From: a virus
Virus record (IMG/VR): IMGVR_UViG_3300033063_000067
Location: 1-15,758 of that record
Length of the DNA stretch: 15,758 nucleotides
Direction: 5' to 3' (one strand)
Position 1 is the stretch's first letter, and each line of letters starts with the position of its first letter. A program made the translations under genes and the position numbers. Under the pieces are notes generated by a model that made no database searches, was not told the DNA's origin, and was given only the letters and a program-made list of their open reading frames with translations. Positions 14,556 to 15,169 of this stretch are shown piece after piece.

Positions 14556-15169
14556 GTCTCAAAACTTACGATCGAGACTTTGACCACGTCAATGACGAGA
14601 TATTGCCATGGCCTTTCAACGTCATTGACGAAGATGGCGTCATTGTCATCGACTCTTGGCATGACATCGTTCCCGGCAAGTGGGTCACCCATAAGACTGC
14701 AGGTGGCAAGGGATTAGTCATCGCCGTCACTGACGACCAGTTGACGGTCCTGTGGTCAGATCCTCCCGGGATCACGGGCTTTTCCAACATCGCATTTCCC
14801 ATCATCAGACGAGTCCAACCTGCGCTCATTCGTAATGAACTTGTTGGCATTCAACCAATGACGGCACCGACCGGACTGATCTTCTACATGGACTACACCT
14901 ACGGTGATGATATCGACAAAAAGTGTAGCGAGGGACCTCTATGGGATAGACTTCGGTGGAAGGCGGTCCGACTGTGGAGAACACGCATCCGATCACAATT
15001 ATCATCTTTGTCCTCCTGGTGTCGCTCGCGGTTTGGCAAGAAATTGTCATCAAGCGAAAATCGAGTGTTCGGACCAAAGTTGACGCAGGACGACCTGATC
15101 ATCAAAGCGACAATCGAGAGGATGGCGAAGGGTGATCAAGCTAGCGGATCGCGGTTTTTCCGTCGGTGA
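14552..15169 (+). CDS. PGD beta-motif family protein, tandem copy 3. The C-terminal ~70 aa of the ORF is low-complexity and of doubtful authenticity.
   Basis: GTG start in a GTGA overlap. IVPGKWVTHKTAGGKGLVIAVTDDQLTVLWSDPPG matches the family. The ORF tail RIRSQLSSLSSWCRSRFGKK is Arg/Ser-rich and overlaps a better-looking alternate-frame small TM ORF. Confidence 0.55.
   Translation: MSLKTYDRDFDHVNDEILPWPFNVIDEDGVIVIDSWHDIVPGKWVTHKTAGGKGLVIAVTDDQLTVLWSDPPGITGFSNIAFPIIRRVQPALIRNELVGIQPMTAPTGLIFYMDYTYGDDIDKKCSEGPLWDRLRWKAVRLWRTRIRSQLSSLSSWCRSRFGKKLSSSENRVFGPKLTQDDLIIKATIERMAKGDQASGSRFFRR
14956..15135 (+). CDS. Candidate small membrane protein (~53-59 aa) in the alternate frame. It is hidden inside the tail of ORF 14552..15169.
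   Basis: The frame opens at 14950. GTG starts are available at 14956 and 14974. The translation reads ...VENTHPITIIIFVLLVSLAVWQEIVIKRKSSVRTKVDAGRPDHQSDNREDGEG, a textbook TM helix followed by basic residues. Its stop TGA 15133..15135 forms a GTGA overlap with the start of the next gene (15132). Confidence 0.35.
   Translation: MEGGPTVENTHPITIIIFVLLVSLAVWQEIVIKRKSSVRTKVDAGRPDHQSDNREDGEG

Follow-up and report, generated by a model that had tools for sequence, protein, structure and literature searches.

A putative membrane-peptide gene nested out of frame in the conserved tail of a gene from a phage-like contig

Can one short stretch of viral DNA, lying in the oddly composed tail of a gene, encode a second protein in another reading frame? 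This question is raised by the IMG/VR virus record IMGVR_UViG_3300033063_000067, of which positions 1 to 15,758 were analysed on one strand; this whole stretch of 15,758 nucleotides (nt) is called the window below. Near its end lies a gene at 14552..15169, here named the host gene, in which residues ~131-172 are rich in Arg, Ser, Trp and Leu (RLRWKAVRLWRTRIRSQLSSLSSWCRSRFGKKLSSS). The initial annotation regarded this tail as suspicious, observed an open alternate frame in it that encodes a hydrophobic peptide, and offered a genuine nested gene, a sequencing frameshift or a programmed frameshift as possible explanations. The comparison of related loci reported here makes it probable, on sequence evidence, that a nested and independently initiated gene overlaps a functional host tail, and that both frames are functional. 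The element is filed as an overprinted small membrane-protein gene, and such overlaps have been described before in phages.

As seen in the window (Table 1), the sequence of the alternate frame is as first described: it is open from 14950, encodes a clean hydrophobic helix and then basic residues, and ends at TGA 15133..15135, which shares the letters GTGA with GTG 15132..15134, the start codon of the downstream gene. The open span 14950..15135 is translated as TSVEGGPTVENTHPITIIIFVLLVSLAVWQEIVIKRKSSVRTKVDAGRPDHQSDNREDGEG, and an alternative start at GTG 14956 would give 59 amino acids (aa). The frame had been called +1; it is in fact -1 (= +2) relative to the host gene, since 14552 mod 3 = 2 and 14950 mod 3 = 1. 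The odd composition of the host tail was also correctly noticed, but it extends over about 40 codons and not ~70, and the last ~35 codons (NRVFGPKLTQDDLIIKATIERMAKGDQ...) look like ordinary protein. An AlphaFold2 model of the nested peptide, computed from single-sequence input, places a helix at residues 4-29 with a predicted local distance difference test score (pLDDT) of up to 95. In a hydropathy census that took in every open stretch of 30 codons or more across all six frames of the window, a Kyte-Doolittle 19-residue mean of at least 2.0 was reached by 7 of 307 stretches, among which the nested open reading frame (ORF) ranked third at 2.42. Since several stretches are equally hydrophobic by this measure, the nested ORF is only suggestive within the window alone, and its significance comes from related loci.

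A search of 5.8 billion clustered proteins returned ten homologues of the host protein (139-229 aa, 45-60% identity), none with a functional name. The long tail, including its Arg/Ser/Trp part (SSL.SW.RSRFGK), is present in eight of the ten. DNA was available for seven related loci (L001-L012) from different samples and pipelines; the tail is intact in six of these and disrupted in L007/L008. The window together with L001, L005, L006, L009, L010 and L011 makes up the seven tail-bearing loci to which the following counts refer. Their gene order is the same throughout, with tandem small genes, the host gene, and then a homologue of 15132..15530.

Both frames are open in all seven. The -1 frame ORF has 58-80 codons and opens after a stop in one shared alignment column. 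A hydrophobic stretch of 19-21 uncharged residues is found in each locus, with hydropathy maxima of 1.83-2.49 in the relatives, and an L-A-[VI]-W-Q motif is present in most. The flank N-terminal to the helix contains no lysine or arginine in the seven loci and one in a free-standing copy in L007, which is described below; the 15 residues past the helix contain 3-8 lysines or arginines in all eight peptides and are followed by an acidic end. The nested peptides of the relatives are 18-45% identical to that of the window, and pairwise DNA identity in the overlap is 0.35-0.67. Peptides so divergent that nevertheless hold the same layout suggest that a property has been kept, not just a sequence. 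Moreover, the host codon before the nested ORF ends in T in 7/7 loci, even though it specifies different amino acids (D, V, S, R, V, S, N). At this site (14945..14949 in the window) the T maintains a nested-frame stop, TAG or TAA, whose position is fixed 5-8 codons ahead of the nested start.

The host-frame tail is also conserved as protein, and its C-terminal helix motif ..PD..K.IV..W is kept towards and past the nested stop. The initial annotation had stated that the idea of a nested gene would fail if homologous loci conserved the long-frame tail and left the alternate-frame peptide unconserved. The comparison bore out only the first half of that expectation, as both were found to be conserved. 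The more distant relatives L013 and L173 have neither the tail nor the peptide ORF and end shortly after the capsid-like segment of the host protein; the overlapping pair is thus specific to one clade.

Searches with the peptide itself returned only P0012, the free-standing copy of L007/L008. P0013, a single phmmer match, does not align and was discarded as spurious. When metagenome, viral and genome contigs were scanned with the full-length alignment, genuine T4-type capsid genes dominated the matches, and one true relative was gained, the tail-less L013. In IMG/VR, a DNA search pattern built on the conserved core CGYTCGCGRTTTGGCAAR matched 8 times by chance and recovered no relatives, and the tail-only alignment was too variable for building search patterns.

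Synonymous codon choice in the host frame is skewed towards keeping the nested frame hydrophobic. In the helix zone, host Ser is encoded by TCN 35 times and by AGY 0 times, compared with 20:21 elsewhere in the same genes (Fisher P 1.4e-7), and host Leu by TTR 11 times and by CTN 0 times, compared with 11:53 elsewhere (Fisher P 1.4e-7). Codons beginning with T make up 64% of host codons in this zone vs 16% elsewhere. Because the first base of a host codon is also the middle base of a nested one, a T there makes the nested codon NTN and hydrophobic; a change from TTG to CTG would be synonymous for the host, yet would place Pro, Ser, Thr or Ala in the nested helix. When the host protein was fixed and synonymous codons were resampled from local codon usage, the nested frame stayed open in 3-19% of redraws per locus (product ~3.5e-8 over the seven loci, independence assumed), and the observed nested hydrophobicity lay above the redraws in every locus (P <= 0.036). 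In the reverse redraw, with the nested peptide fixed, the host frame was open at 0.22-0.48 per locus (product 1.6e-4).

Ratios of nonsynonymous to synonymous change (dN/dS) were calculated with our own simplified routine, which classifies sites after the example of OLGenie (PMC7531306, the method paper). The host frame gave 0.42 within the overlap (dNN/dSN; bootstrap 0.25-0.61), beside 0.34 upstream, and the -1 frame gave 0.57 in the overlap (dNN/dNS; bootstrap 0.33-0.91). As a control, the -1 frame over the upstream singly coding part gave 1.57 (1.21-2.20). By these ratios both frames show signs of purifying selection. Across host RSRFGK the third positions of both frames are nearly invariant (CGC TCG CGG TTT GGC AAG), as expected under double constraint. 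With a host tail that is conserved as protein, open in all loci and held at a dN/dS of about 0.42, the description of this tail as suspicious is not upheld. Additionally, a third frame is open in the window for 59 codons (14904..15083, + strand), such that all three forward frames are open over ~14956..15083. This 59-aa ORF was rejected as a gene because of stops in the helix zone of L001 and L011; its openness is largely forced, since its helix-zone codons end in T.

Candidate initiation signals accompany the nested ORF in most loci. One start column is shared by TTG in L006, L009 and L011 and ATG in L010; GTG 14974 of the window lies one codon later, and the ATG of L001 two codons earlier. 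GGAGG or GGAAGG precedes the nested start by 7-10 nt in 4/7 loci (window, L006, L010, L011), and GAGG by 6 nt in L009. As a baseline, a Shine-Dalgarno-like (SD-like) match of at least 5 bases is found at 12 of 69 called genes and at 2.5% of random positions. These start signals coincide with conserved host codons and are supportive, not decisive. At the other end, the nested stop and the next start overlap by 4 nt in the window and in L011; in the remaining loci the stop precedes that start by 15-22 nt. The translational coupling proposed in the initial annotation is therefore plausible for the window but not general, the 4-nt overlap being confined to these two loci.

A natural rearrangement bears on the mode of initiation. 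L007 and L008 represent one locus, P0005, with an identical stretch. In both, a 176-aa ORF for a GIY-YIG homing endonuclease (L007 2788..3318) begins exactly at the nested start position and in the nested frame. The L007 host protein reads into this ORF and ends at 2995 with an unrelated tail. Beyond it, at 3334..3519, lies a free-standing 61-aa ORF (MFENSVINSAMQREDEISLVVFAILFALAIYTKIDQQRGRASAKTEVGPNAGDSRPDQGHR), which was called by the original gene caller, clearly encodes the same peptide as the nested one, and has ATG 3364 in the homologous start column. The host-frame equivalent is separated from the gene body by stops, and RSRFGK is lost. The retention of the peptide ORF without host fusion argues for independent initiation and against a route by frameshift only. 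The two records are a single lineage, and the insertion could be recent. Positions 3316..3350 of L007 repeat, in degenerate form, the start region of the gene that follows (3526..3560), suggesting that the endonuclease arrived with flanking sequence. A group I/II intron at the insertion was considered and rejected, as no Rfam match was obtained at E <= 1.

Of the three explanations offered initially, the genuine nested gene is the one that held: the ORF, helix, charge layout and stop near the downstream gene recur in the tail-bearing loci, and the ORF stands free in L007. In the mechanism proposed, the DNA of ~14950..15135 would be read in two frames. Ribosomes on the host gene would continue through it and produce a helical tail rich in Trp, Arg and Ser, while other ribosomes would start inside the host gene, one base out of register, probably at GTG 14974 after the SD-like GGAAGG at 14958..14963, and produce a separate membrane peptide. 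This peptide of ~53 residues would have one membrane-spanning helix, a short non-basic N-terminus on the outside, and a basic and then acidic C-terminus in the cytoplasm. According to the positive-inside rule, the basic flank of a membrane helix stays cytoplasmic, and with this charge layout a single-pass, N-out and C-in peptide is predicted. The nested TGA lies atop the next start codon and may hand ribosomes on to the downstream gene. We infer, from the letters of the DNA, translation of the peptide, its start site, its membrane orientation and its coupling to the next gene. By analogy with other embedded phage gene pairs, in which the two proteins function jointly, it may be guessed that the peptide is a small inner-membrane effector or anchor acting with the host protein. 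The two frames could be distinguished by the tryptic peptides VDAGRPDHQSDNR (nested) and LTQDDLIIK (host).

Several other explanations have to be weighed against two functional frames. A programmed -1 frameshift after 14950 would fuse the beta domain and capsid-like segment of the host protein to a C-terminal membrane anchor. The frame itself is -1, the usual direction for such shifts, the upstream -1 stop in a conserved column would define a short slip window, and TTG is the sole candidate start in three loci; however, no X_XXY_YYZ slippery heptamer exists in the host frame over the nested span in any of the seven loci, the minimum energy of the RNA fold at 14935..15075, computed for the window, has z = -0.27 vs shuffled sequences, start codons with SD-like motifs exist, and in L007 the peptide ORF is intact though an endonuclease gene and stop codons part it from the host frame. 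This option of the initial annotation is considered very unlikely. The chance that a sequencing or assembly indel made an artificial frame change is close to nil: the odd tail composition is the sole point for it, separate assemblies from different samples and pipelines keep the two-frame arrangement, and the host homologues are of the same length class (205-229 aa). This second option is regarded as refuted.

The remaining explanations grant function to one frame only. If the host frame alone were functional, the nested ORF would be an untranslated shadow of a Ser/Leu/Trp-rich tail, and it is true that the tail is conserved, open and predicted to be helical, that T-first host codons force NTN codons, which are hydrophobic and never stops, in the -1 frame, and that protein databases hold no homologue of the peptide. 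Such a shadow is nevertheless unlikely, because Ser is solely TCN and Leu solely TTR in the helix zone, unlike usage elsewhere, because synonymous redraws lose both the open frame and its hydrophobicity, and because dN/dS of the -1 frame falls to 0.57 from 1.57 in the control region. Conservation also extends to the charge layout, which falls outside the forced T-first zone, and the peptide ORF survives free-standing in L007 while RSRFGK has been lost. Conversely, the membrane peptide alone may be functional in the overlap, with the host tail a tolerated, functionless read-through past the capsid-like segment. The composition of the host tail is the expected shadow of a transmembrane helix in the -1 frame, distant relatives end soon after the capsid-like segment, and the host protein of L007 and L008 has lost its original tail. 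Set against these points are a host frame open over ~85 codons in seven loci, for which the joint probability given the peptide is ~1.6e-4, its dN/dS of 0.42 in the overlap, nested-frame third positions that are invariant across host RSRFGK, and a host-frame C-terminal helix conserved towards and beyond the peptide stop. This explanation is likewise held to be improbable.

Other observations weigh against the reading with two functional frames. Among 5.8 billion clustered proteins and among 1.84 billion representatives, no homologue of the nested peptide was found other than the L007 copy. An SD-like motif is missing from L005, and in L001 GGAGG ends only 2-3 nt ahead of the ATG; the SD-like motif and the NTG start are built from conserved host W-[RK] and [R/L]-W codons and could be by-products of them. 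The dN/dS routine is simplified and home-made and works near saturation (dSN about 1.2), and the multiplied probabilities overstate significance, since the seven loci share ancestry. L013 and L173 do without both tail and peptide, so the overlapping pair is dispensable for the wider family. Also, both products are known here from the DNA of an uncultured organism alone.

Comparison with known systems gives partial resemblances. Embedded spanins, such as lambda Rz1 in Rz, likewise encode a small envelope-targeted protein in a second frame that lies wholly within the 3' part of a larger phage gene. Their inner gene has its own ribosome-binding site, for which the SD-like motif seen in five or six of the seven loci is a candidate here. 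Embedded genes of this type are routinely overlooked in gene calling: in 677 phages, 182 embedded and 228 overlapped spanin pairs have been reported, and many of the embedded genes were unannotated (PMC6139136). The inner frame of embedded spanins is +1, in contrast to -1 here. The outer spanin gene has an N-terminal transmembrane domain, whereas the host protein has none (19-residue hydropathy maximum 0.76) and begins with a soluble beta domain. The inner spanin gene carries a lipobox Cys, whereas 7/8 peptides here have no Cys past the hydrophobic stretch and only L005 reads LLAC. No lysis-related match was obtained with Pfam (18 window ORFs) or PHROGs (10 ORFs, 12269 to 15530), and no holin or endolysin lies nearby. 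Therefore, with no host transmembrane domain, no nested lipobox and no lysis cassette, the two frames are not considered a spanin pair.

A short protein with a single N-terminal helix, overprinted out of frame, is also seen in phiX174 and in the sgl genes of single-stranded RNA phages; in phiX174, gene E lies inside gene D. These are lytic proteins of tiny genomes under strong size pressure, whereas the contig studied here resembles a larger double-stranded DNA phage with many small genes. Genes of the sgl type are small, resemble nothing else in sequence and pose problems for annotation (PMC7693330). The nested peptide shows no sequence similarity to phiX174 E or to sgl proteins. In lambda G/GT and in dnaX, a -1 ORF overlaps the 3' end of the upstream ORF as it does here, but those systems use a slippery heptamer and a stimulatory RNA structure, both of which are absent here, and the present -1 ORF has candidate start signals and occurs free-standing in L007. 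The nested peptide would fit a holin in size, single helix and charged C-terminus; holins are encoded beside an endolysin and trigger lysis, and no endolysin neighbour is present among the scanned ORFs.

If the nested gene is genuine, dual coding would be well conserved in an apparent double-stranded DNA phage lineage known solely from metagenomes. It would also imply that small membrane proteins in alternate frames are systematically missed, the peptide having been annotated only in the L007/L008 variant, where it stands free (P0012). The annotation of the tail would be corrected in turn: the Ser/Trp/Arg-rich part would reflect a transmembrane helix encoded in the other frame, and be neither an error nor low-complexity junk. 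L007 would provide a natural split version for comparison.

Table 1. Positions of the putative nested gene, the host gene and the downstream gene in the window.
Feature	Position	Strand	Remarks
Putative nested gene	14974..15135	+	-1 frame; 53 aa from GTG 14974; stop TGA 15133..15135
TAG stop in the -1 frame, upstream bound of the nested ORF	14947..14949	+	Same alignment column holds a stop in 7/7 loci
Shine-Dalgarno-like GGAAGG	14958..14963	+	10 nt upstream of GTG 14974; made by host-frame W-K codons
Predicted transmembrane helix of the nested peptide, PITIIIFVLLVSLAVWQEIVI	14989..15051	+	Kyte-Doolittle 19-residue maximum 2.42
Basic flank 3' of the helix, KRKSSVRTKVDAGRP	15052..15096	+	6 K/R, 1 D/E; acidic end next
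Host gene	14552..15169	+	205 aa; small beta domain, capsid-protein-like segment and tail
N-terminal small beta domain, aa 1-72	14552..14767	+	AlphaFold2 pLDDT 82-92; common to three window paralogues
Capsid-protein-like segment, aa 74-120	14771..14911	+	Pfam Gp23 PF07068 positions 2-47 of 376, E 2.6e-13
Host-frame tail, aa 121-205 and stop	14912..15169	+	Conserved C..GP motif; predicted helices aa 130-161 and 179-197
Downstream gene	15132..15530	+	132 aa; GTG start; 4-nt overlap with nested TGA, 38-nt overlap with host ORF

The host gene itself begins with a GTG that shares the letters GTGA with the stop codon of gene 14256..14555. A hidden Markov model (HMM) of its beta domain matches the ORFs 14256..14555, 13982..14272 and 12841..13374, and a Foldseek comparison of the host-protein model with the PDB gave nothing below E = 0.1, only generic small beta barrels. 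Behind this unrelated domain, residues 74-120 are modelled as disordered and share 69% identity with the conserved N-terminal stretch of full-length metagenomic T4-type capsid proteins. The PF07068 score is 50.6 bits vs a family cut-off of 24.4, with 46 of 376 profile positions present. As nothing else of the capsid fold is present, we do not count the host product among capsid proteins. In the tail, the predicted Trp/Arg/Ser-rich helix corresponds to 14939..15034 and the C-terminal helix to 15086..15142, with AlphaFold2 pLDDT of ~67-84. An exact-protein look-up of the 205-aa product gave no match, and the homology search returned it as P0001. No match was found by blastn of 12000..15758 against phage GenBank records, and a promoter and terminator scan gave nothing above shuffled expectation.

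The capsid-like segment aligns to T4 gp23 residues 89-134 (PDB 6uzc), a part that contains the Gol region, residues 93-122. T4-type major capsid proteins possess the full domain, whereas the host gene retains only the positions noted above. The Gol region, described as 29 residues that bind EF-Tu, is the most conserved part of gp23 (PMC3014915).

The window contains four paralogues with the beta domain (12841..13374, 13982..14272, 14256..14555 and 14552..15169; HMM E 1e-37 to 3e-4), and the conserved segment of a T4-type major capsid protein that follows this domain differs from one paralogue to the next. These segments are a 'TRKLRARW' strand in 12841, the following helix in 13982, the last 36 residues of the capsid protein in 14256 (55-58% identity, E 1e-12), and the N-terminal Gol-type stretch in 14552 (69% identity). 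The capsid matches of 12841 and 13982 are weak in the window (E 0.03-0.1), and their counterparts in L001 and L007 are stronger (E 2.5e-11, 8e-7). The set recurs in the same order in related loci, namely in L001 (2276..2779, 3382..3681, 4022..4660) and in L007 (860..1381, 1678..1971, 1968..2342, 2339..2995), and it is also found in L005 and L173. To our knowledge, no function has been described for proteins that display capsid segments in this way.

A more speculative proposal, to which we give a low probability, is that the overlap is a two-product module and not a matter of compaction. The nested anchor and the Trp/Arg-rich amphipathic helix of the host would dock at the same membrane and so keep the Gol-type segment of the host protein at the inner membrane. 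In this view the host gene belongs to a conserved set of four paralogues, in which a shared beta domain presents capsid segments that differ between the members, and the set might serve to decoy capsid-sensing host defences, or to regulate or poison the assembly of capsids. Searches of the literature turned up no relevant work on capsid-fragment or decoy proteins, and no such system is described in the papers searched. The capsid-segment gene family may prove more interesting than the overlap itself.

The downstream gene 15132..15530 is paralogous to 12576..12896, located 2.5 kb upstream (24% identity, E 2e-8), and neither matches Pfam or PHROG. Further hydrophobic short ORFs occur on the + strand at 7120..7344 (maximum 2.92), 5814..6161 (2.68) and 4472..4699 (2.28). 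The last lies mostly between listed ORFs, 5814..6161 corresponds to the listed ORF 5817..6164, and 7120..7344 overlaps its neighbours at both ends. A 33-aa ORF at 15532..15633 (+), hydrophobic by eye, begins 2 nt past the stop of 15132..15530. The contig may encode several small membrane proteins.

Elsewhere in the window, minus-strand ORFs are located in the first 2.4 kb, one of them with a phosphoribosyltransferase domain (E 7e-8), and G+C content changes from ~0.62 (1..3500 and 9500..12000) to ~0.50 (12000..15000). The whole gene 9229..11892 (+) is covered on the opposite strand by a 947-aa ORF (9223..12066), which is probably a high-GC shadow. The 887-aa protein of 9229..11892 carries a major-vault-protein shoulder domain (E 3e-29) along with weak vault-repeat and SPFH matches, and a major-vault-protein domain is unusual for a phage-like contig.

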